From a virus (lineage: Duplodnaviria > Heunggongvirae > Uroviricota > Caudoviricetes), in the IMG/VR virus record IMGVR_UViG_2698536552_000007: a stretch of DNA of 26,470 bases; one strand, 5' to 3'. Both the position numbers and the translations under genes were made by a program. Below the pieces are notes generated by a model, which worked only from the letters and a program-made list of their open reading frames with translations, made no database searches and was not told the DNA's origin. Position 1 is the stretch's first letter. Every line of letters starts with the position of its first letter. This document shows, piece by piece, positions 378-24,946 of this stretch.

Positions 378-971
378 ATGGCGCATATACAACTGGTCAA
401 ACAAACCTCTTCTGGTTTACTTCTCCCGGCGACGCCGGAGAGTTGCGATTTTCTGCATCAAATCAAAATAGGTGAGTGGATACACGCAGACTTTAAGCGT
501 GTGCGTAACTACGCATTCCACAAGCGTTTTTTCAAACTCCTGCAACTGGGATTCGATTACTGGACTCCGGTCGGTGGGGCGATCACGCCTCGCGAACGAG
601 AACTGCTGTCTGGTTTCGTTGATTACCTGTGCGAATCAGTTGGTCGGGAACACACGCCAGCCCTGAGTGATGCCGCAGAGCANNNNNNNNNNNNNNNNNN
701 NNNNNNNNNNNNNNNNNNNNNNNNNNNNNNNNNNNNNNNNNNNNNNNNNNNNNNNNNNNNNNNNNNNNNNNNNNNNNNNNNNNNNNNNNNNNNNNNNNNN
801 NNNNNNNNNNNNNNNNNNNNNNNNNNNNNNNNNNNNNNNNNNNNNNNNNNNNNNNNNNNNNNNNNNNNNNNNNNNNNNNNNNNNNNNNNNNNNNNNNNNN
901 NNNNNNNNNNNNNNNNNNNNNNNNNNNNNNNNGTTGAAAATGTGGCCGCACAACTACTGGAGTTTGCGTAA
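378..971 (+). CDS. Nin-region phage protein, DUF1367-like (YdfU family); interior masked by N block 683..932
   Basis: Long ORF with ATG start; its stop overlaps the ATG of the next gene (TAATG at 969..973). Family assignment is from memory of lambdoid prophage Nin-region proteins and is unverified. Confidence 0.45.
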   Translation: MAHIQLVKQTSSGLLLPATPESCDFLHQIKIGEWIHADFKRVRNYAFHKRFFKLLQLGFDYWTPVGGAITPRERELLSGFVDYLCESVGREHTPALSDAAEXXXXXXXXXXXXXXXXXXXXXXXXXXXXXXXXXXXXXXXXXXXXXXXXXXXXXXXXXXXXXXXXXXXXXXXXXXXXXXXXXXXXVENVAAQLLEFA

Positions 972-1878: not shown

Positions 1879-2771
1879 ACGTCAGGAAAGCAGGGGAGAA
1901 TGCTGCTAGTTGGGCAACTGGTCTTTCTGCTCCAAATTATAACAGAGACCAGTTATAGTTTCGGTGCTGTGTTTTTTTTACAATATTGTGATAACACATT
2001 GCTGGCGGGAGTTTTGATATTTCTTGGCAGGGGCTGATGATGCGTTATCCTGATGTCGTCAACTCATATAAAATGAGATGAGAGATCATTGCAGGGTGGT
2101 TTGTAATTCGCTGTTTAGCGGGANNNNNNNNNNNNNNNNNNNNNNNNNNNNNNNNNNNNNNNNNNNNNNNNNNNNNNNNNNNNNNNNNNNNNNNNNNNNN
2201 NNNNNNNNNNNNNNNNNNNNNNNNNNNNNNNNNNNNNNNNNNNNNNNNNNNNNNNNNNNNNNNNNNNNNNNNNNNNNNNNNNNNNNNNNNNNNNNNNNNN
2301 NNNNNNNNNNNNNNNNNNNNNNNNNNNNNNNNNNNNNNNNNNNNNNNNNNNNNNNNNNNNNNNNNNNNNNNNNNNNNNNNNNNNNNNNATTTTTTGTTTT
2401 CCTTTTTTCCAGTCATCTGATGATGACCTGCTTCTTTTTAATCCGGATCGACATCAGTTTTTTAAGATAATTCCTGCGAGTTATATGCATAAATGCCACA
2501 AACTCCGCATTTTATGTGGTTGGGAGTTGCCGGGCGCGCAGTGAGTTTGCTAAGAAAACTCCTGCATGGTGAATCCCCCTGTGCGGTGGGGTGATACCAT
2601 TAACCTTTTCTGTCGCCGACAGGTATCACGAACATTTTGTTCACCGGGAGGCACCCGGCACCATGCACTTCAATAGATTCTCTCCACATTATGGATATTC
2701 TTTCAGAATATCCCACGCAGACTTTGTGTAAATGTTAACAAATGTGCGTTTTATTTGATCTGATTCGCTGT

Positions 2772-2801
2772 TTGAGCGTCCAAAACAACGGTATATATAA
2801 T
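2772..2801 (+). promoter_or_regulatory. candidate sigma70 promoter for the lipoprotein moron (TTGAGC, 18-nt spacer, TATAAT)
   Basis: TTGAGC at 2772..2777 and TATAAT at 2796..2801, about 30 nt upstream of the ATG at 2831, in an AT-rich intergenic stretch. Confidence 0.3.
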
Positions 2802-2830
2802 CCTTTACTATATGACATATGTGAGGAAAA

Positions 2831-3259
2831 ATGGGTTTTCGTAGCGCATCAATTCTTACGTTGATTATTAGTGGGATTATTATCGGGTGCACTGATGCTG
2901 TATCGACAAATTATCATGACCGTACATCATATTACTCCGATAAAGCAATAGAGACACAGTATGTGAGTTCATCTGAACGTACTTCTGATGTTAGTGAGGA
3001 TATCCGTCTGTATGCCCATCAAATCAAGAGCGCCATCGAAAAACAGTTCGGGGATGCGAGTAAGTATTCAGGAAAAGAGTGTACACTGAGAATGCATATG
3101 GCCCCGAATGGCCTTCTACTGGAGGTTAAAAGAGAAAGTGGAGACCTCGATTTATGTCGTGAAGCGATGAATGCGATAAAGAATGCTGATATACCTGCCC
3201 CCCCTTCGCCGGAAGTATATAAAGTATTTCAAAATGGGGTGCTGGATTTTAAACCCTGA
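2831..3259 (+). CDS. lipoprotein with TolA C-terminal (domain III)-like domain
   Basis: SD gtgaggaaaa precedes the ATG. N-terminal signal peptide ends in a lipobox (IIGC). The C-terminal ~85 aa (YAHQIKSAIEKQFGDASKYSGKECTLRMHMAPNGLLLEVK...PPSPEVYKVFQNGVLDFKP) aligns by eye with E. coli TolA domain III (YAGQIKSAIESKFYDASSYAGKTCTLRIKLAPDGMLLDIK...PPSQAVYEVFKNAPLDFKP), including both Cys. Confidence 0.8.
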   Translation: MGFRSASILTLIISGIIIGCTDAVSTNYHDRTSYYSDKAIETQYVSSSERTSDVSEDIRLYAHQIKSAIEKQFGDASKYSGKECTLRMHMAPNGLLLEVKRESGDLDLCREAMNAIKNADIPAPPSPEVYKVFQNGVLDFKP

Positions 3260-3409
3260 TATTTATTGTTTTGTAATAAACGGTTTCGGCTTAGGTTTGT
3301 TCTGACACAGCTACGGCACTGAGCTAAATTTAGCGGATAGTCAGCTCTGAGCCAGTGGCGGACGTAACAACTACTATTGCTGAGATTTTAATGGATTGAG
3401 GAGCAAGAA

Positions 3410-8866: not shown

Positions 8867-9961
8867 ATGAGCAGACCGGACTGGGGGGCGTTGCAGCAGG
8901 AGTATATTGCTGAATACACCCGCTCCGGTATATCTCCGGTGGCATGGTGTGAAGCAAGGGGACTGAATTACGCAACAGCCCGTCGTTACATCAAAAAAAC
9001 TCCGAAAAATGCGCAGACAGAAATGTGCAAAACTGCGCAAAAAAGTGCGCAGAAAAAATCTGCGCAGACTGCACAAAAGCGGAACGAAAAATCTCAGGAA
9101 AAAAAGCCAGTATTCGATGCGGGCCTGAATGAGGGCGACGCGGAGGAATTTTCGTTCTGTCCCGATGAATTCGGCATTTCTGACCAGCAGGCTAAGTTTG
9201 CGATGCTTGTTGCTCAGGGTAAAAAGCCGACAGAGGCGTACCGACTAGCCGGTTATGAGGGGCAAGGTGCGACAGCTAACAGCAACGCCAGTCGTATGCT
9301 TAGAAATGCCAGGGTTTTTCGCGCTATCAGCTACTTCCGCAATCAGTACCAGAAACGCTATACCGCAGACCTGGATTTACTAGTGAGTCAGTTGATGGCT
9401 ATTGTCCTGGCCGACCCCAATCAGCTTGCACAATTTCGCCGTGTTAACTGCCGTTATTGCTGGGGCGAGAATCATCTCTACCAGTGGCGCGATATAGCAG
9501 AATTCGACAAGGCAGCGGCGCAGGCTTCCAGAGATGGCAAACCCGAACCGGAATATGGAGGCCTCGGCTTTGTTGATAACGCCATACCCAATCCGGACTG
9601 CCCGAAGTGCTGCGGTGAGGGAACGGGACAGCTTTATATGGCTGATACCACTCTGCTTGATGGGGATGCGCGGCAATTATATGCAGGGGCAAAATTCGGA
9701 AAATTCGGCGTTGAGATCCTGCTGGAGGATAAGGCTGCCGCCCGGCGTGAATTGTTGCGTTTGTTTTCTGCTGGCGGGGCTTTATGTGCAGATAAGCGGC
9801 TACGGGAACTGGAAATTGAACGGCGCAGAATGGAAAACCAGAAGCTGCGCAAAGAGATCGAAACGGTGGAAGATAATGAACATCCCCAGCCTGTGGCGAT
9901 CAATATTAATGTGGTTGATGCCAGAGTAAGGAGTGATGAAGATGATCTCTCCGACGCTTAA
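8867..9961 (+). CDS. terminase small subunit (Terminase_2-like core with N-terminal HTH-like region and low-complexity AQK linker)
   Basis: Motif AYRLAGYEGQGATANSNASRMLRNARV matches the small-terminase signature as I recall it. Sits immediately upstream of the large terminase gene. Confidence 0.78.
   Translation: MSRPDWGALQQEYIAEYTRSGISPVAWCEARGLNYATARRYIKKTPKNAQTEMCKTAQKSAQKKSAQTAQKRNEKSQEKKPVFDAGLNEGDAEEFSFCPDEFGISDQQAKFAMLVAQGKKPTEAYRLAGYEGQGATANSNASRMLRNARVFRAISYFRNQYQKRYTADLDLLVSQLMAIVLADPNQLAQFRRVNCRYCWGENHLYQWRDIAEFDKAAAQASRDGKPEPEYGGLGFVDNAIPNPDCPKCCGEGTGQLYMADTTLLDGDARQLYAGAKFGKFGVEILLEDKAAARRELLRLFSAGGALCADKRLRELEIERRRMENQKLRKEIETVEDNEHPQPVAININVVDARVRSDEDDLSDA
9010..9075 (+). repeat. 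array of palindromic hexamer TGCGCA (4 exact, 2 one-off variants) with A-rich spacers inside the terminase small subunit gene
   Basis: TGCGCA at 9010, 9034, 9046, 9061; TGTGCA at 9024; TGCACA at 9070. Spacing is 9-15 bp. Encodes the low-complexity AQK linker. Confidence 0.4.
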
Positions 9962-11264
9962 TGTGCCTCAGGCGCGANNNNNNNNNNNNNNNNNNNNNNN
10001 NNNNNNNNNNNNNNNNNNNNNNNNNNNNNNNNNNNNNNNNNNNNNNNNNNNNNNNNNNNNNNNNNNNNNNNNNNNNNNNNNNNNNNNNNNNNNNNNNNNN
10101 NNNNNNNNNNNNNNNNNNNNNNNNNNNNNNNNNNNNNNNNNNNNNNNNNNNNNNNNNNNNNNNNNNNNNNNNNNNNNNNNNNNNNNNNNNNNNNNNNNNN
10201 NNNNNNNNNNNNNNNNNNNNNNNNNNNNNNNNNNNNNNNNNNNNCGCCAGTATCGGGGAACCACTATCTGCAGATCGATGGAGAAGCCACAAACGATCGT
10301 CGGTTTCAAAATTGGTAATGCGTTGGTGGATGAACTGGACATTTTGCCGAAGGAAAAAGCCAGAACGGCGTGGCGCAAGATAATTGCACGTATGCGTTAT
10401 AAGATTGATGGACTTCGCAACGGTATTGACGTTACAACCACGCCGGAAGGATTCAAATTTGTCTACGAGCAGTTTGTTAAAGCCGTGCGTGAAAAAACAG
10501 AGCTGGCCTCACTGTATGGTCTGGTGCAGGCATCTACTTTCGATAATGAAAAGAACCTGCCAGCAGATTACATTCCTTCGCTTCTTGAATCATACCCTCC
10601 AGAGCTGATTAAAGCCTATCTTCGAGGACAGTTTACTAACCTGACAAGTGGTACTGTTTACCATCAGTTTGACCGGAAACTGAATAATTGCGAAGAAGTG
10701 GAGCAGCCAGGGGAGCCGATTTATATTGGGATGGATTTTAACGTTGGAAAGATGGCGGGAATCGTCCATGTGCTGCGTTTGGGGCTTCCATGTGCGGTAA
10801 CTGAAATCATCAATGCCTACGATACGCCGGATATGATCCGCATCATTAAAGAACGCTTCTGGCTGTATGATGGGAATGATTACCGGAAAGTGAGGGAAAT
10901 TTATATTTATCCAGATGCTTCCGGGGATTCCAGAAAATCAAGTAACGCAAGTACGACGGATATAGCCCAGCTTAAGCAGGCTGGTTTTAACGTTGTGGTG
11001 AACAGCTCGAACCCGCCAGTAAAAGATCGCGTTAACTCAATGAATGCAATGTTCTGCAATGCCAATGGTGAGCGTCGCTATAAAGTTAATGTGAAGCGTT
11101 GCCCGTTATATGCCGAATCTCTGGAGCAACAGGTCTGGGATGAGAAGGGGGAGCCTGATAAAAAATCTGGCAATGATCACCCGAATGATGCCGGAGGTTA
11201 TTTCATCGTTAAGCAATTCCCTATTGTCAAACCGACCGGAAGAGTCACATCACTTCGGATTTAA
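9942..11264 (+). CDS. terminase large subunit (N-terminal region masked by N block 9978..10244)
   Basis: About 440-aa ORF following the small subunit and preceding the portal gene; SD aaggag 9 nt upstream of ATG 9942. The ATPase motifs are presumably inside the masked part; the call rests mainly on synteny and size. Confidence 0.75.
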   Translation: MISPTLNVPQARXXXXXXXXXXXXXXXXXXXXXXXXXXXXXXXXXXXXXXXXXXXXXXXXXXXXXXXXXXXXXXXXXXXXXXXXXXXXXXXXXXXXXXXXXRQYRGTTICRSMEKPQTIVGFKIGNALVDELDILPKEKARTAWRKIIARMRYKIDGLRNGIDVTTTPEGFKFVYEQFVKAVREKTELASLYGLVQASTFDNEKNLPADYIPSLLESYPPELIKAYLRGQFTNLTSGTVYHQFDRKLNNCEEVEQPGEPIYIGMDFNVGKMAGIVHVLRLGLPCAVTEIINAYDTPDMIRIIKERFWLYDGNDYRKVREIYIYPDASGDSRKSSNASTTDIAQLKQAGFNVVVNSSNPPVKDRVNSMNAMFCNANGERRYKVNVKRCPLYAESLEQQVWDEKGEPDKKSGNDHPNDAGGYFIVKQFPIVKPTGRVTSLRI

Positions 11265-16877: not shown

Positions 16878-17258
16878 ATGGCAAAGGCATGGGATATAGA
16901 ACCGTCAATATTTGCCGGGATGATTGAGGAAGATGTAGGGCTGAAGATTCGCTACATCGCTATGCAGATTCTTACTGCTATTGATATTGCTGCTCCGGTT
17001 GATACCGGACGTTTCAGAAATAACAACCTGGTGTCGTTACAGCATCCCGATTTTGGTATATCTGATAACGTGGATCCGAACGGTACGATTGCTGTTCAGC
17101 GTGGGATCGGGGTTATTTCGAAAGCTGCAAATTACGGGGTTATTTATATCCAGAATAACCTTCCTTATGCAGAGGCTCTTGAAAACGGTCATTCACAACA
17201 AGCGCCAACTGGCGTGTATGCCAACGCTTTTCATGGTGTTTTACAGGCTTACAAATGA
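16878..17258 (+). CDS. HK97 gp10-like head-tail joining protein
   Basis: Contains a PVDTGRFRNN motif resembling the HK97 gp10 family signature; stop overlaps the next ATG (ATGA). Confidence 0.55.
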   Translation: MAKAWDIEPSIFAGMIEEDVGLKIRYIAMQILTAIDIAAPVDTGRFRNNNLVSLQHPDFGISDNVDPNGTIAVQRGIGVISKAANYGVIYIQNNLPYAEALENGHSQQAPTGVYANAFHGVLQAYK

Positions 17259-17647
17259 AGTTTACTGAAATCAGAAATACGGTTATTTCCAGAATGACGG
17301 CACAGACGATTATTGATGGAAAAGACGTATTGTATCCGAACGGGCCAACGTTCGATCCTTCCGGTAAGTTAATCTGGGCGCGGTTAAGTAATATTCCCGG
17401 GCAGGCTGGAGTTAATGAAATTGGCGCGGGGCCGGTTGTTTATCGCACGGGGATAATCATTATTCAGTTATTTGTCCCCGCAGGTTCTGGTTCAAAACTC
17501 ATTACTGAGACAGCCGATAAATTGCGGGAACTGTTTGAGTTTCAGGATGACGATCGTCTCAGTTACCAGGCTGTTTCCTCAATAGCCGTTGGCGAAAAGA
17601 ATGGCTGGTTCCAGCTTAATCTTCAAATTCCATATCGCGCGCTCTAG
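17255..17647 (+). CDS. tail completion / tail terminator protein (by position)
   Basis: Last small gene before the major tail protein; start overlaps the upstream stop. Confidence 0.5.
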   Translation: MKFTEIRNTVISRMTAQTIIDGKDVLYPNGPTFDPSGKLIWARLSNIPGQAGVNEIGAGPVVYRTGIIIIQLFVPAGSGSKLITETADKLRELFEFQDDDRLSYQAVSSIAVGEKNGWFQLNLQIPYRAL

Positions 17648-17673: not shown

Positions 17674-18636
17674 GTGAGTTCAGGTGCAAAGGTTATCTCG
17701 GCATTTATCCGGGAGACGGTTGCAGGCACTACGCCAGCAAGTGGTGACTGGAGTTTATTAAAACGCACAAGCTGGGGAGTAAAACCCACCCAGAATAAAG
17801 GCGAAAATAATGAGATTGGTGGCTCCCGGATGGCTCAGGGGGCGACGCCTGGCACTGTGGATGTCGGCGGTGATGTTGGTACCAAATTTCGCTGGGGTCA
17901 ACATGATGATTTTCTTGCATCCTGTTTCGGCGCGGAATGGTCAGGCGATTCTCTGACAATGGGGAATGAGCGAATAACATTTTCTCTGGCGACCTATGCG
18001 TCCGATGTCGGAATTGCCTCTGTCGTCAGAGGAGCGCAGGTTGGCTCATGGAAAATGCAGATCCCTAACGACGGCGATATTACAGCGACCGTAACCTTTG
18101 CCGGACTGGACTGGGAATCAAAGGCCGATGATACGAATTTTATCAAAGGCGAACCTGTGGATAGTGCAGGAAAGCTACGTTATTCGTTTAAGGAGGTTTC
18201 AGCAGTAAGCCTGAATGGTGTTGCCGGAGGTAACGGTTTTTGTATCGACAGTTTTGATATTCAGTTCGATAACAAACTCCAGACACAGCGTTGTATCGGG
18301 ACTGGCTCGCCTTATGCAGGAGCAAATATTCCGACTACTTTTACACCGTCCGGTACGGTGACGCTTTCATGGTCTAAAGCCGCGTGGGAAATCTGGAGTA
18401 AAACACTGACTGGAGAAACAGTTCCGTTCAGCTTCACGCTTTCGAATGGAGAGGGGGCATACACTTTCAGTTTCCCGAAGGTTCAGGTGTCAGGTGAATG
18501 GCCTGATGGGGGTAATAGCGACATTATCCAGGTTCAATTGAGCATTACCGCAGCAGATGAAGCACCTACGATAACCAGAAAAAAAAATTCCCCGGCTGCC
18601 GTGATCGCAAAAGCCAGTGCTGAGGCGATTAGTTGA
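17674..18636 (+). CDS. major tail (tube) protein
   Basis: GTG start with SD aggagg 4 nt upstream. 320-aa Gly/Thr/Ser-rich protein immediately upstream of the tail chaperone pair and tape measure. Confidence 0.65.
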   Translation: MSSGAKVISAFIRETVAGTTPASGDWSLLKRTSWGVKPTQNKGENNEIGGSRMAQGATPGTVDVGGDVGTKFRWGQHDDFLASCFGAEWSGDSLTMGNERITFSLATYASDVGIASVVRGAQVGSWKMQIPNDGDITATVTFAGLDWESKADDTNFIKGEPVDSAGKLRYSFKEVSAVSLNGVAGGNGFCIDSFDIQFDNKLQTQRCIGTGSPYAGANIPTTFTPSGTVTLSWSKAAWEIWSKTLTGETVPFSFTLSNGEGAYTFSFPKVQVSGEWPDGGNSDIIQVQLSITAADEAPTITRKKNSPAAVIAKASAEAIS

Positions 18637-18684
18637 TTTTCCGTTATTCCTCCTGTGGTACTGCCCTACAGGGGGACGCATTGA

Positions 18685-19146
18685 ATGAGGTTATGGATGT
18701 TTATTCTTAATCAGAAAATTATCATTGGTGGAGAACGCTGGTTTACGCCAATGAAGGACTTAAAACCTGTAGACGGGTTAAAACTGTTGGTGGCAAGCAG
18801 CGATAACGATCAGTATCGCTCCCGTAATGCATTAATCCGTCGCCACATTGAGAAAATGGATGCCAGTTTGCACGTCGGAACGAAGGAGTTTGATATTTCA
18901 AAGGTTTCCGAGGTGGATTCTGTTGATGATTTACTCATTGATAATGCCGCTCGTTATCTGCTGAAAGACTGGAAAGGGGTTGGTGAACTGGTTAATGGTG
19001 TTGAGGTTGCACTGGAATATACGGCAGAACGAGGGATCGCGCTGCTTAAGCAGAATCCAGAGTTGTACTGGCAGATCCTTGCAGAAGCAGCCAGCATCGC
19101 CCAGGGTAAAGAGCAGCAGAAGCAGGATACGATAAAAAAGCCATAG
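18685..19146 (+). CDS. tail assembly chaperone (lambda G-like)
   Basis: Acidic ~150-aa protein ending at TAG 19144..19146, with a slippery heptamer A_AAA_AAG three codons before the stop and a -1 frame open downstream. Confidence 0.7.
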   Translation: MRLWMFILNQKIIIGGERWFTPMKDLKPVDGLKLLVASSDNDQYRSRNALIRRHIEKMDASLHVGTKEFDISKVSEVDSVDDLLIDNAARYLLKDWKGVGELVNGVEVALEYTAERGIALLKQNPELYWQILAEAASIAQGKEQQKQDTIKKP

Positions 19147-19454
19147 CTGCCCAGCGGTGGTTATCGGAGTTCGGGGGAGAAAGGGGGGAAAAGGCAAGAT
19201 GGAAGCGAGAAAAACTCAGGTTGCCACCGATACCGGAACCAGAAATAGACCCGGTGCTTAAGGAGTTGTTGTACGCCTATTCGGTAATATCCCGTGCCCG
19301 ACGTTATGCTGGAATGGCTGGGGTGCCTTTGCCTTTATCTCTGACAGAGATAAATGAATATTTAGCCACTCATCCGGTATTGATTGAGCGCGATGAATTT
19401 GAAGCAGTGATCTTTGCACTGGATGACCAGTATTTTCAGGAGCAGTGTGTGTAG
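18685..19454 (+). CDS. tail assembly chaperone frameshift fusion (lambda GT-like), made by -1 slip at 19134..19140
   Basis: After a -1 shift at AAA_AAG the reading frame is open from 19140 to the stop at 19452..19454 with no intervening stop; this is the same frame as the track ORF 19221..19454. Confidence 0.6.
19134..19140 (+). other. programmed -1 ribosomal frameshift slippery site A_AAA_AAG
   Basis: Codons ATA AAA AAG CCA TAG in the chaperone frame; a canonical X_XXY_YYZ heptamer at the conserved position just before the chaperone stop. Confidence 0.6.
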
Positions 19455-19574
19455 TTGTTAATTACGTACACTCTGTTACAGAGATGTGATGGTGTCTTTA
19501 ATTAAATCGATGATGCTCCTGGAGAAAAGCATTGCGTGGCCTCGTAATCGCTATATCTACTATTATGTCGCCTG

Positions 19575-19600
19575 AAACCCACTTCGCGGTGGGTTTTTTG
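19575..19600 (+). terminator. hairpin with T-run (aaacccac / ttcgcg / gtgggttt + T) in the spacer upstream of the tape measure gene
   Basis: 8-bp stem and T-rich tail, 20 nt before the tape-measure ATG. May be an attenuator rather than a full terminator. Confidence 0.4.
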
Positions 19601-19619
19601 TTGTCAGGAGTTTTAATAA

Positions 19620-22600
19620 ATGGCAGAGCAAACCTCGCGTCTCGCAATAATTATTGATAGCACTGGAGCGAAAAATAATGCTGACAATCTGACCTCCTCA
19701 TTAGTCAAAATGACGCAGGCTGGGGAAACTGCTGCAANNNNNNNNNNNNNNNNNNNNNNNNNNNNNNNNNNNNNNNNNNNNNNNNNNNNNNNNNNNNNNN
19801 NNNNNNNNNNNNNNNNNNNNNNNNNNNNNNNNNNNNNNNNNNNNNNNNNNNNNNNNNNNNNNNNNNNNNNNNNNNNNNNNNNNNNNNNNNNNNNNNNNNN
19901 NNNNNNNNNNNNNNNNNNNNNNNNNNNNNNNNNNNNNNNNNNNNNNNNNNNNNNNNNNNNNNNNNNNNNNNNNNNNNNNNNNNNNNNCCGGAAAACTTGC
20001 TGCCGCCCAGCAGGAAGCGCAGGCTCAGGCCTTTCAAAGAATGCTGGACAAGATCGACCCTCTGGCTGCGGCGCTAAGAAATCTTGAACAACAGCATGAT
20101 GAACTTAATGCTGCGTTTGCATCCGGGAAAATAAATGGTTCTCAGTTTGAGAATTATAGCCGAAAAATACAGGAAACACGGCGAGAGCTTACCGGAGAGG
20201 CTCAGGCAGAGCGAGAAGCAGCAAAAGCGCATGATGAACAGGTTGTTGCTTTGCAACGTCTGATTGCTCAACTTGATCCTGTCGGAACTGCTTTTAATCG
20301 TCTGGTAGAACAACAGAAACAGCTCAATGAAGCAAAAGCTAAGGGGATGCTTTCTCCTGAAATGTATGAGGAGCTTTCTGGAAAACTTCGTGCTATGCGG
20401 AGTGAGCTTGAGGTTACTCAATCACAATTAAGCAAAACCGGAATGTCGGCAAAACAAACGGCTTTTGCTATGCGCATGTTGCCTGTACAAATGACGGATA
20501 TTGTTGTTGGGTTGTCCACTGGTCAGTCGCCATTTATGGTGTTAATGCAGCAGGGCGGCCAGCTAAAAGATATGTTCGGTGGGATTGGCCCGGCGATCAA
20601 AGGTGTAGGTTCTTATGTGCTGGGATTAATTAATCCTTTTACCCTGGCCGCAGCAGCCGTTGGGGTCTTAGGACTGGCTTACTATAAAGGCTCTCAGGAG
20701 CAGGACGAATTTAATAAATCTCTTATTCTTACCGGAAATCAGTTGGGGACAACCAGCGGGCAATTGGGCGATATAGCTCAACGTGCCGGGAATGCGGCTG
20801 ATTCGACAACTGGTGCTGCGGCGGCAGTATTAAATCAGCTTGTGCGTTCGGGAAAGGTAGCGAGCAGTTCGCTGGAGCAAGTGACGACAGCGATAGTAAA
20901 AACGAGCGAAGTAACAGGAATATCAACCGAACAACTGGTTAATGACTTCAATGAAATTGCAAAGGATCCTGTCAGTGCCATATCAAAACTTAATGATCAG
21001 TACCATTTTCTGACACTTGCGACTTATAACCAGATTAAGGCGCTACAGGATGAAGGGAACCAGCAGGAGGCCGCCCGCATTGCGACAGAAGAATACTCAT
21101 CCTCAATGATCCAGCGCACCAACCAGATTAAAGAAAATCTTGGTTATCTTGAGACTGCATGGAAAGCTGTCGCAGACTCCGCAAAATGGGCATGGGATTC
21201 CATGCTGGATATTGGCCGTGAGGCCTCCCTTGATCAAAAAATCTCAGATGTTCTCCGTCAAATTGATGAAATAGAAAAAAATACCCGACCCGGAGTTTTC
21301 GGGTTAGGTGGCATTGGAGATGGCGGAGCTCAAAATAAAAGGCTGGCACGATTAAAGCAGCAATTGGGCGTACTTCAAGCAGAAAAAATTGCTCAGGACG
21401 TACTAAATTCATCAATAAACGATTACAACAAGCGACAACAGGAAGGAATTGAACTCAGACAGAGAGCAGATGCCTTTTCAAAACAATATCAGACCCGGGA
21501 GCAGCAGAGAGCTAGTGAACTTGCAAAACTGGAAAAGCTAAAGAATCAGTATTCAAAGGAAGAATATAATAATCTTATCGCTCAAATAAATGAGCGTTAT
21601 AAAGATCCAAAGCAACCAAAGGCGAAAGGTTATTCTGATGATGCAGCCCAACGAATGATTGATCATCTGAATCAACAGAATGCGTTACTAAGTTCACAAG
21701 CTGAGTTGACCGTTAAATTAAGTTCCTCTGAACAGGAACTGGTTAAGTGGCGTCAGCGGATTGCCGACCTAGAGTCACGACCATCATCGAAATTAACCCA
21801 GGATCAGAAATCGCTTCTCTTACACCGGGAAGAAATAACCACGTTGATGGAGAAAAATGTTGCGATTGAAAAAAATAACAGGCTAATCAAGGAATCCGCC
21901 GAAATAACAGCATGGCGTGATTCATTGCAGGCTTCGATTGATAATCGTCAGCAGGGGTATGATATTCAGATTGCTGGTTATGGGGTTGGCGATAAAAATC
22001 AGCAACGCCAGCAGGAATTACTGCGGATTGAACATGGATATAACAATCAGCGTCTGCAACTTGAACGTGACTATGCAGATAAATCCCGTGGAATGTCAGA
22101 TCATGTTTTTCAAGAGAAAATGCAGGCTCTGAATGATGCTCTGGAACGGGAAAAAGAAATTGTCAGACAGAAAAACGAGCAGCTCGATATTCAGGCAGGA
22201 GACTGGGTTAGTGGTGCCTCCCAGGGATTCAATAACTGGCTGGATGACACTAAGGATATCAGTGAGCAGATAAAATCAACCACGACTCAGATGTTTGATG
22301 GGATGACCGATGCGCTGGGTGATTTTGTCACGACAGGCAAGGCAAATTTTCGTTCTTTCGCTACTTCCGTGATTTCGGATCTTAGTCGAATAGCATTAAA
22401 GGCTTCAATTACTGGGATTTTCGACAGCATTAGTAACAGTTCTTCTGGGGGGATTTTAGGAACTATCGGGAGTGCTATTAGTAAATTTATTCCGAATGCA
22501 AAGGGCGGTGTTTATGAGTCTCCGTCATTGAGCACGTATTCGAACGGTATTTATGATTCCCCGCAATTTTTTGCTTTTGCAAAAGGGGCTGGTGTTTTTG

Positions 22601-22860
22601 GTGAGGCTGGACCGGAAGCCATTATGCCATTAACACGAACTTCCGATGGTTCTCTTGGTGTCAGAGCTATTAATAGTAAAAGTGGTAATGGAGGCGGAGA
22701 TATTACCTATGCCCCTGTATACCAAATCACTATTCAAAATGACGGCCAGAATGGAGAGATTGGCCCTCAGGCAATAAAAGCACTTATGGGGATGGTTGAT
22801 CAGCGGGTGCAGGGCAATCTGTTAAATATGCGACGTGATGGGGGAATGTTAAGTGGCTAA
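19620..22860 (+). CDS. tail tape measure protein (interrupted by N block 19738..19987)
   Basis: SD aggag 9 nt upstream of the ATG. About 1080 codons, coiled-coil-rich (Q/E/K/L/A repeats), with a hydrophobic segment and a Gly-rich C-terminus, upstream of an M-like gene. The frame on either side of the N block differs, so the masked length is not frame-preserving. Confidence 0.85.
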
Positions 22861-23191
22861 TACGGAAGAATTTCACTGGTTACCAGAGGATGGAATGAAA
22901 ACAGAAAATAAACCATCGATAAAAACTGTAAGATTTGGTGATGGTTATGAGCAACGAAGTCCAAATGGACTTAATCATTCTCTGCGCGTTTTCACCTGTG
23001 ATTTCAAAGTTGAGGCGAATGAACGTGATTCATTTGAAAAATTTTTAGCCCGGCATGAAGGCTATAAATCTTTTTTTTGGCGCCCGCCGGGTATTAACAG
23101 AAAAATCAGAGTGGTGTGTCGAACGTGGTCAGCGACAGAACATATCACCTATACCGATTTTTCGTGTCAGTTTGACGAAGTGGTGATCTGA
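22853..23191 (+). CDS. M: minor tail protein M (alternative start ATG 22895)
   Basis: Aligns by eye with lambda gpM ([18 protein letters not shown]...KSFFWRPP vs lambda SVRKVRFGDGYSQRAPAGLN...KSFLWTPP). Stop overlaps the L start. Confidence 0.85.
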
Positions 23192-23889
23192 TGCAGGACA
23201 TACAACAGGAAACGCTGAATGAATGCATTCGTGCGGAGCAGTCGGCCAGCGTGGTGCTCTGGGAAATCGACCTGACCGAGGTAGGCGGGGATCGCTACTT
23301 TTTCTGCAATGAGCAGAACGAGAAAGGAGAGTCTGTCACCTGGCAGAGTCGGCAGTATCAGGCCTATCCCATTCAGGGGAGTGGATTTGAGATGAACGGC
23401 AAAGGTGCCAGTGCAAGGCCAACGCTGAAAGTCTCTAATCTGCACGGCATGGTCACCGGGATGGCGGAAGACCTGCAGAGTCTGGTCGGCGGAACGGTGG
23501 TCAGGCGTAAGGTTTACGCCCGTTTTCTGGATGCGGTGAACTTCGTCAACGGAAACAGTGACGCCGATCCGGAGCAGGAGGTGATCAGCCGCTGGCGTAT
23601 TGAGCAGTGCAGCGAACTGAGCGCGGTCAGTGCCTCCTTTGTACTGTCCACGCCGACGGAAACGGACGGCGCTGTTTTTCCGGGGCGCATCATGCTTGCT
23701 AATACCTGCACCTGGACCTATCGCGGTGATGAGTGCGGTTATCACGGTCCGGCTGTCGCGGATGAATATGACCAGCCAACGTCCGATATCACGAAGGATA
23801 AATGCAGCAAATGCCTGAGNNNNNNNNNNNNNNNNNNNNNNNNNNNNNNNNNNNNNNNNNNNNNNNNNNNNNNNNNNNNNNNNNNNNNN
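23191..23889 (+). CDS. L: minor tail protein L (3' end inside N block 23820..24105; end estimated)
   Basis: Visible 209 aa are almost identical to lambda gpL as I recall it ([12 protein letters not shown]...TCTWTYRGDECGY...DKCSKCL). End estimated from lambda L length. Confidence 0.85.
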
Positions 23890-24093
23890 NNNNNNNNNNN
23901 NNNNNNNNNNNNNNNNNNNNNNNNNNNNNNNNNNNNNNNNNNNNNNNNNNNNNNNNNNNNNNNNNNNNNNNNNNNNNNNNNNNNNNNNNNNNNNNNNNNN
24001 NNNNNNNNNNNNNNNNNNNNNNNNNNNNNNNNNNNNNNNNNNNNNNNNNNNNNNNNNNNNNNNNNNNNNNNNNNNNNNNNNNNNNNNNNNNNN

Positions 24094-24946
24094 NNNNNNN
24101 NNNNNAGACAGAATCAGCGATTCTGGCGCACGCCCGGCGATGTGCGCCAGCGGAGTCGTGCGGCTTCGTGGTGAGAACGCCGGAGGGGGAAAGATATTTT
24201 CCCTGCGTGAATATCTCCGGTGAGCCGGAGGATTATTTCCGGATGTCGCCGGAGGACTGGCTGCAGGCAGAAATGCAGGGTGAGATTGTGGCGCTGGTCC
24301 ACAGCCACCCCGGTGGTCTGCCCTGGCTGAGTGAGGCCGACCGGCGGCTGCAGGTGCAGAGTGATTTGCCGTGGTGGCTGGTCTGCCGGGGGGCGATTCA
24401 TAAGTTCCGCTGTGTGCCGCATCTCACCGGGCGGCGCTTTGAGCACGGGGTGACGGACTGTTACACGCTGTTCCGGGACGCTTACCATCTGGCGGGNNNN
24501 NNNNNNNNNNNNNNNNNNNNNNNNNNNNNNNNNNNNNNNNNNNNNNNNNNNNNNNNNNNNNNNNNNNNNNNNNNNNNNNNNNNNNNNNNNNNNNNNNNNN
24601 NATTGAGATGCCAGATTTTCATCGTGAGGACGACTGGTGGCGTAACGGCCAGAATCTCTATCTTGATAATCTGGAGGCCACAGGGCTGTATCAGGTGCCG
24701 TTGTCAGCGGCGCAGCCGGGCGATGTGCTGCTGTGCTGTTTTGGTTCATCGGTGCCGAATCATGCCGCCATTTACTGTGGTGACGGCGAGCTGCTGCACC
24801 ATATTCCTGAACAACTGAGCAAACGAGAGAGGTACACCGACAAATGGCAGCGACGCACACACTCCCTCTGGCGTCACCGGGCATGGCACGCATCTGCCTT
24901 TACGGGGATTTGCAGCGATTTGGCCGCCGCATCGACCTTCGTGTGA
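24094..24946 (+). CDS. K: tail assembly protein K (start inside N block; also interrupted by N block 24498..24601)
   Basis: TESAILAHARRCAPAESCGFVV...HSHPGG (JAB/MPN-like) before the second N block and IEMPDFHREDDWW...CCFGSSVPNHAAIYCGDGELLHH (NlpC/P60-like) after it. The frame changes across the mask. 3' end overlaps the I start. Confidence 0.75.

Follow-up and report, generated by a model that had tools for sequence, protein, structure and literature searches.

The question raised by this locus is how the second of two overlapping open reading frames (ORFs), located between the tail tube gene and the tape measure gene of a long-tailed phage, is brought to expression. The window, that is, the whole stretch of DNA analysed (26,470 nucleotides in length), belongs to a Rac-type siphophage or prophage of Escherichia coli and represents its tail module, which looks complete. 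On the plus strand, the tail terminator gene (17255-17647) is followed by the gene for the tail tube protein, the major tail protein (17674-18636), which was recognised by the Pfam family PF18906 Phage_tube_2 (E = 9e-32) and the PHROG family phrog_290 (E = 3e-112), and which is listed in RefSeq as "phage tail tube protein". The tape measure gene on the same strand (19620-22860) was matched by PF06791, PF09718, and PF24622 and by phrog_24, and also bears the tape measure name in RefSeq, with the start at ATG 19620; a gene for a lambda-M-like minor tail protein (22853-23191, plus strand) is located next to it. Within the window, the tape measure gene is broken by a masked run of 250 N (19738-19987). 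The two overlapping ORFs lie between the tube and tape measure genes, and the upstream one is hereafter referred to as G and the downstream one as T, giving on the plus strand the order tube, G, T in the -1 frame, and tape measure. A gap of 165 nt, with a terminator-like hairpin, separates the stop codon of T from the start of the tape measure gene.

The zero-frame codons at the 3' end of the ORF 18685-19146 read GAT ACG ATA AAA AAG CCA TAG, and from this sequence a slippery heptamer A_AAA_AAG was read at positions 19134-19140 on the plus strand, in the X_XXY_YYZ register of the zero frame. Since the stop codon of this ORF is the TAG at 19144-19146, the heptamer is indeed located three codons before the chaperone stop, as proposed in the first-pass annotation. 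The -1 frame is closed upstream by TAA at 19107-19109, is open from 19110, and ends at TAG 19452-19454. Translation of this frame from 19134 gave 106 sense codons before the stop, and 104 of these, the first being GCC at 19140, are new codons that follow the slip, in full agreement with the earlier estimate of about 104 open codons up to position 19454. The zero and -1 frames overlap by 37 nt (19110-19146), within which A_AAA_AAG is the sole canonical slip site. Because the -1 frame is closed upstream by TAA 19107-19109, the shift must be confined to this 37-nt overlap.

The occurrence of the heptamer in the window is by itself not significant: a total of 11 copies of A_AAA_AAG were found against 7.2 expected, and seven among 100 shuffled sequences reached the level of 11. 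Of these 11 copies, only the one at 19134 joins an upstream ORF in register (150 codons) to a stop codon three codons on and to a -1 frame that stays open for 106 codons.

The product of the upstream ORF was identified as a G-type tail assembly chaperone. The gene is most likely to extend from 18697 to 19146 on the plus strand and to encode a zero-frame product of 149 amino acids: the ATG at 18697 is preceded by GAGG 6 nt upstream, agrees with the N-termini of the homologues (M-[LF]-[IV]-I), and corresponds to the start annotated in phage SPF_0923. Use of the alternative ATG at 18685 gives a product of 153 amino acids. In the PHROG profile search, G matched phrog_313, "Tail assembly chaperone", with an E-value of 4e-46 (158.7 bits). 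The AlphaFold model of G is of modest confidence (pLDDT 67, pTM 0.59); among PDB folds no match was found for this pLDDT 67 model, but its best matches in BFVD are named tail assembly or tape measure chaperones (probability 1.0, TM about 0.5), several of which are 230-310 amino acids in length. By the phrog_313 profile, and more tentatively by the BFVD fold, the upstream product resembles recognised tail assembly chaperones. No family was matched by G in the Pfam-A scan, NCBIfam holds no family for either G or T, and the sequence search of PDB gave no match.

The T-type extension occupies 19140-19454 on the plus strand and consists of 104 codons in the -1 frame and the stop codon TAG at 19452-19454. 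T matched phrog_1189 with an E-value of 1e-36, and PF23812 Phage_TAC_18 at 20.6 bits, which is under the cutoff of 27 for this family. The structural model of T (pLDDT 62, pTM 0.31) was too weak to use and gave no significant fold matches. The predicted G-T fusion is described as join(18697..19140,19140..19454) on the plus strand, with base 19140 read twice, and would be 252 amino acids in length, its junction reading ...QDTIKK|AIAAQRWLSEF... in the prediction. When a 256-aa conceptual fusion was compared with phrog_313, it aligned as a single stretch over positions 13-246 of 258 (E = 6e-51) and scored 174.4 bits, above the 158.7 bits of G alone, indicating that phrog_313 includes full-length G-T products. 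The few database proteins that cover both halves (P0001, P0002, and P0003) were also considered, and were rejected as annotated recoding products, being indel or deletion variants.

For examination of the conservation of this arrangement, a total of 96 related loci were collected by tblastn searches in which the conceptual fusion was run against phage records, and from representative bacterial genomes and IMG/VR viral contigs. The T segment was found in the -1 frame of the G segment at 95 of the 96 loci, which come from Enterobacteria, Pseudomonas, and Acinetobacter and span three bacterial orders. At the sole exception (L018), two 1-nt deletions are present downstream and the heptamer is intact. 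The carriers of the cassette include sequenced phage records, such as SPF_0923 (100% identical), phiPSA1, and TRS1. In the alignment of fusion proteins from E. coli, Klebsiella, Erwinia, Pseudomonas, and Acinetobacter, which runs unbroken across the junction at 25-66% identity, the lysine at the A site (K152) forms an invariant column. Both the two-frame layout and this shift column are kept in Klebsiella, Citrobacter, Erwinia, Mixta, Pseudomonas, and Acinetobacter, down to a protein identity of about 25-33%.

The heptamer itself turns over at this fixed column. The enterobacterial loci (86 loci with 28 distinct sequences) carry A_AAA_AAG, the Mixta and Acinetobacter loci G_GGA_AAG, the Pseudomonas loci G_GAA_AAG, and Erwinia phage Gungnir39 C_GCA_AAG directly before TAA, and the A-site portion A_AAG is the only part common to all four versions. 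The G_GGA_AAG of the Mixta and Acinetobacter relatives is the heptamer of lambda itself. Among the enterobacterial relatives, the stop codon of G is located 1, 7, 25, or 35 codons past the heptamer and the heptamer stays unchanged, indicating that the heptamer is not fixed in place by the G stop. The earlier proposal that this site represents the conserved G/GT frameshift of tail assembly chaperones is therefore supported by the synteny, the in-register heptamer, the -1 frame at 95 of 96 loci, the retention of the shift column, and the match to phrog_313.

As judged from the sequences, it is highly probable that two tRNA-Lys molecules slip in tandem by -1 on A_AAA_AAG on the ribosome, leading to synthesis of both a 149-aa G protein and a 252-aa GT protein. 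For this reading, the coding character of the DNA directly downstream of the heptamer is of importance. The selection test compared 28 distinct sequences, all ungapped, across the 87 nt that adjoin the heptamer on its 3' side (window positions 19140-19226). The synonymous share of single-nucleotide codon differences was 85% in the T (-1) frame, 18% in the G (zero) frame, and 11% in the +1 frame. At least one stop codon was present in none of the 28 sequences in the T frame, in 27 of 28 in the G frame, and in 16 of 28 in the +1 frame. When arranged by codon position of the T frame, the variable columns were 10 of 29 at the first, 9 of 29 at the second, and 26 of 29 at the third position. These sequence patterns altogether point to purifying selection on -1-frame coding that begins directly at the heptamer.

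The same stretch of DNA bears on a different reading, in which T is a separate small gene, translated from a start of its own (TTG 19221 or another internal codon) or by termination and reinitiation after the stop codon of G, the heptamer being incidental. Gene callers and RefSeq do annotate such an ORF (77 amino acids; 62 amino acids in SPF_0923), and the sequence AAAAAAG is, with its 11 copies, common in the window. However, the 81 nt that lead from the heptamer up to TTG 19221 belong to the region under clear -1-frame selection, where none of the 28 relatives has a stop codon in the T frame. The TTG 19221 is present in only seven of the 28 distinct relatives, and the other 21 have neither ATG nor GTG nor TTG in the T frame over the 87 nt; ATG is absent from the T frame. 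The only Shine-Dalgarno-like bases before TTG 19221 are AGG, which abut the TTG without any spacer. The database proteins for the T ORF, all of them "hypothetical", begin at no fewer than eight different called positions, and the protein alignment passes over the junction without a break. Taken together, the -1-frame selection and the pattern of start codons indicate that independent initiation does not account for the 27 conserved residues at the N-terminus of T, and a separate T gene is accordingly very unlikely. The first-pass annotation had anticipated that automated annotation would call a TTG-initiated ORF at 19221, and RefSeq protein WP_001312809.1 is placed exactly there; this 77-aa ORF (19221-19454, plus strand) is an annotation artefact that corresponds to the 3' part of the T extension. 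Two tryptic peptides of the T frame, AIAAQR and WLSEFGGER, are encoded 5' of TTG 19221, and the predicted junction would be spanned by an Asp-N/Glu-C peptide, for example DTIKKAIAAQRWLSE.

A slip could also take place in transcription, with RNA polymerase adding one A within the run of six A at 19134-19139 and thereby producing a subpopulation of mRNA that carries G and T in one frame. The site is indeed a homopolymer of six A, and a 1-nt insertion into mRNA yields the same protein as a -1 shift of the ribosome. The run is, however, short for bacterial RNA polymerase, which slips efficiently only on stretches of some 8-9 or more A or T. In addition, the sites G_GGA_AAG, G_GAA_AAG, and C_GCA_AAG of the homologues contain no homopolymer longer than 3-4, and because these homologous sites are non-homopolymeric, any mechanism common to the entire family must be ribosomal. 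Transcriptional slippage is treated alongside ribosomal frameshifting in a review (PMC5009743), but on E. coli ribosomes A_AAA_AAG ranks among the most shift-prone of -1 sites (PMC5009743). We consider a transcriptional origin of the fusion to be improbable, to about the same high degree as a separate T gene.

The weakest account, in which no recoding takes place and a single G-T gene was broken by mutation in a decaying prophage or the frame is open by chance, may draw on the wide spread of the element as prophage, on its being part of the defective Rac remnant of K-12, and on the occasional in-frame or indel variants in databases (P0001, P0002, and L018), but it is hardly credible against the same -1 layout at nearly all loci of three bacterial orders, sequenced phage genome records included, the strong purifying selection in the -1 frame, and a heptamer that is kept while adjacent synonymous sites and the position of the stop codon vary.

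Stimulatory elements that might accompany the ribosomal -1 slip were searched for on both sides of the heptamer. The minimum free energy of the 90 nt after the heptamer was -23.1 kcal/mol, close to the -22.5 averaged by shuffled sequences (z = -0.24), showing no excess stability. The 50-nt downstream folds of 17 loci gave z = +0.42 for the window and z-values from -1.0 to +0.9 for the 16 relatives, with no common shape; the RNAalifold consensus of the downstream region was -2.8 kcal/mol, with no covariation; and the search of the region against Rfam gave only a sub-threshold match of a terminator hairpin. The G-rich run at 19181-19200, to which attention had been drawn in advance as the place of a possible downstream stimulatory structure, folds no better than shuffled sequences and shows no covariation. 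It was rejected as a stimulator, as it forms no stable or conserved structure, and the run encodes GGERGEK in the T frame. On the upstream side, AGGA is located at 6 nt from the heptamer and does not vary among the enterobacterial loci, in which it belongs to the codons CAG-GAN; Mixta, Erwinia, Pseudomonas, and Acinetobacter lack it. No claim is made for AGGA as a Shine-Dalgarno-like stimulator. Since no stimulatory element was found, the efficiency of the shift should rest on the heptamer alone, and a stimulatory RNA element appears from the sequences to be neither needed nor present.

The heptamer itself is shared with E. coli dnaX (tau/gamma), the site being identical, A_AAA_AAG. At dnaX, a Shine-Dalgarno-like stimulator on the 5' side and a stem-loop on the 3' side assist the site, which shifts at about 50%. 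The present site differs from dnaX in that no stable or conserved hairpin is located downstream, AGGA is the sole Shine-Dalgarno-like element, and the biological role is different. Because the dnaX-type stimulators are missing here, the expected efficiency is low. The heptamer A_AAA_AAG is decoded by the single tRNA-Lys of E. coli (PMC5009743), and lambda needs only about one GT per 30 G (PMC5009743).

On this basis, expression of the locus may be pictured as follows. Most ribosomes would stop at TAG 19144, giving the 149-aa G-type chaperone. A small fraction, probably a few percent, would slip back by one base at 19134-19140, this estimate being drawn from the behaviour of A_AAA_AAG in E. coli and the lambda ratio of about 30:1 for G to GT. 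The two tRNA-Lys, positioned on AAA and AAG, would both re-pair on AAA-AAA, after which the ribosome would read 19140-19451 in the -1 frame and complete the 252-aa G-T fusion. The roles of gpG and gpGT in lambda suggest that the tape measure protein would become coated by G parts and that the tube protein would be brought in by the T part of the scarce fusion, thereby starting polymerisation of the tail on the tape measure; as in lambda, neither G nor GT would be expected to remain in the virion. The ribosomal nature of the slip, its efficiency, and the roles of both proteins in assembly are what we infer.

The programmed -1 frameshift of lambda G/GT is the established system of this kind (Levin, Hendrix & Casjens 1993; Xu, Hendrix & Duda 2004, 2013, 2014, as cited in PMC5009743). 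The present locus is similar to lambda with respect to the order of tube, G, T in the -1 frame, and tape measure, the location of the heptamer near the 3' end of G, the lack of an own start for T, and the lack of an evident downstream structure; in both, the layout yields a major short and a minor long product, which are here predicted from the sequence. It is different from lambda in the heptamer, being A_AAA_AAG instead of G_GGA_AAG, and in the presence of the hairpin-bearing 165-nt gap before the tape measure gene. In addition, no similarity to the G and T sequence families of lambda was detectable; Pfam-A gave no match for G, and for T only the sub-threshold PF23812. Going by these Pfam results, the locus appears to lie outside lambda's own G and T sequence families. 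The main features of the tail-chaperone frameshift of Xu, Hendrix & Duda, insofar as they can be judged by sequence, were found at this locus.

A distant but true homologue is present in Acinetobacter phage vB_AbaS_TRS1 (NC_031098, TRS1_18/TRS1_19), of which T is about 39% identical and in which the slip-site lysine is in the same column, the -1 layout and the synteny being shared as well. The TRS1 locus is different in that the heptamer is G_GGA_AAG and G runs 26 codons past the shift site, as against one codon here, and in that the frameshift is annotated there as a joined (j2) chaperone CDS.

The cassette is also found in the Rac remnant of E. coli K-12, where the region of ydaY (b1366) is 100% identical to the window over 18795-19654, the heptamer being in the frame of ydaY and the T frame being intact. 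Unlike the chaperone gene of the window, the K-12 gene is without its 5' end, with homology to the window setting in at 18795, next to ynaK, and the downstream tape measure gene of K-12 Rac, ynaA, is a pseudogene. The pseudogene state of ynaA and the 5' loss of ydaY indicate that the K-12 cassette is a relic. We tentatively propose, as a two-part reading that stands slightly below an even chance, that slippage of tRNA-Lys on A_AAG alone suffices for the needed amount of GT, provided that the Pseudomonas and Erwinia sites are functional (the Erwinia site being aided by the adjacent stop codon), and that K-12 Rac carries an intact but unannotated cassette made up of ydaY and the 104-codon extension. 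A full-text search of the literature, with Gurvich et al. 2003 outside its scope, gave nothing relevant on a frameshift of ydaY or Rac; that article (EMBO J) is said to be a survey of A_AAA_AAG in E. coli K-12 genes.

Over 18600-19650, the window matches Salmonella phage SPF_0923 at 100% identity and several E. coli vB_EcoS phages at about 98%, and the prophage type is carried by 1,075 of the 5,426 complete E. coli genomes. In RefSeq, G is called "protein YdaY", with the start at TTG 18787 and a length of 119 amino acids, which represents an N-terminally truncated model inherited from the truncated K-12 gene. The -1 ORF is either unannotated in RefSeq or entered as the 77-aa "hypothetical protein" WP_001312809.1 at the equivalent of TTG 19221..19454. 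In SPF_0923, two "hypothetical proteins" are annotated in this region, the start of G being the ATG equivalent to 18697. No join for slippage was present in the inspected records of close relatives (Rac-type E. coli, Salmonella, and Klebsiella).

Altogether, the locus is a standard G/GT -1 frameshift of long-tailed phages, real but ordinary, and the understanding of tail assembly and of recoding is unchanged by it. It provides a clean comparative example of the turnover of a slippery site at a fixed position. The chief value is in annotation, as entry of join(18697..19140,19140..19454) would put names, in a large number of genomes, to two proteins now of unknown function.

At one homologous column, corresponding to the A_AAA_AAG heptamer proposed as the site of the -1 ribosomal shift (19134-19140, plus strand), the shift sequence was found to turn over among relatives: C_GCA_AAG_TAA is present in Erwinia phage Gungnir39, G_GAA_AAG in Pseudomonas phages and prophages, and G_GGA_AAG in Mixta and Acinetobacter. 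Sites other than A_AAA_AAG were located in the related loci L006 (1086-1095), L007 (434-440), L010 (1135-1141), L012 (1920-1926), L013 and L014 (about 1926-1932), and L015 (1797-1803). The only part common to all the shift sequences at this column is A_AAG, and two of the three variant sequences are non-canonical with respect to the P-site tRNA. Another A_AAA_AAG of the window (9100-9106, plus strand) is likewise in register with a real ORF of 364 aa (8867..9961), but its -1 frame is closed after 10 open codons, and thus this shift-prone site is most likely incidental and would give a rare truncated product at most.

The chaperone gene (G, 18697..19146) and its 104-codon -1-frame extension (T, 19140..19454) were also found in other arrangements. 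One E. coli contig encodes an in-frame G-T protein of 240 aa (P0001; ...ILAEAGYDKKAIAAQ...), of which the junction is consistent with a 35-nt deletion between 10-nt direct repeats, GCAGAAGCAG, located just upstream of the heptamer at 19081-19090 and 19116-19125 of the window; such a protein would represent a "GT-only" variant, arisen either naturally or through assembly. The sole related locus with T outside the -1 frame of G is L018 (IMGVR_UViG_2513237361_000013, about 1995-2025), in which the heptamer is intact and two 1-base deletions, one in a G6 run and the other at GCGAGAAAAA, are both situated downstream of it. This exception probably reflects either a sequencing error in a homopolymer or decay of the prophage.

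The stop codon of T and the start of the tape measure gene are separated by a non-coding gap of 165 nt (19455-19619), which includes an intrinsic-terminator-like hairpin, GAAACCCAC-TTCG-CGGTGGGTTTT followed by TTGTTG (19574-19597, plus strand). The exact hairpin was detected in 28 of the 98 sequences checked (97 fetched loci and the window), and comparison with Rfam gave a weak resemblance to sroH at its terminator end, which at 14.7 bits falls short of the gathering score (80). This hairpin may be an attenuator situated between the chaperone gene and the tape measure gene. Among the seven masked N runs of the window (683-932, 1282-1531, 2124-2388, 9978-10244, 19738-19987, 23820-24105, and 24497-24601), the fifth lies inside the tape measure gene and consists of 250 N, whereas the same flanks are separated by 243 nt in 30 relatives, including the 100%-identical Salmonella phage SPF_0923. 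As a result, the two pieces of the tape measure ORF (19620.. and 20041..22860) are mutually out of frame by one base in the window as given, the discrepancy stemming either from the masking or from a genuine difference of 7 nt.

In full-length prophages, RefSeq/PGAP starts the chaperone ("protein YdaY," WP_012565075.1, 119 aa) at TTG 18787, a copy of the N-terminally truncated pseudogene remnant of K-12. The true start is most likely ATG 18697, predicted to give a product of 149 aa (18697-19146); this ATG is preceded by GAGG 6 nt upstream and agrees with the N-termini of homologues. In the defective Rac prophage of E. coli K-12 MG1655 (L003, NZ_CP010444), of which locus 2501-3360 is 100% identical to window 18795-19654, the chaperone gene lacks its 5' end, the homology beginning next to ynaK, and ynaA, the tape measure gene further downstream, is a pseudogene. 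The frameshift cassette is intact there, with the heptamer in the ydaY frame and the entire 104-codon T frame. Unrelated N-termini, such as a ParB/Srx domain like the one found where ynaK meets ydaY in K-12, are fused to the C-terminal ~120 residues of the chaperone in the database proteins P0014, P0019, and P0040, which suggests that Rac-type prophages have repeatedly undergone deletion or recombination with breakpoints at about one place, close to window 18780-18850.
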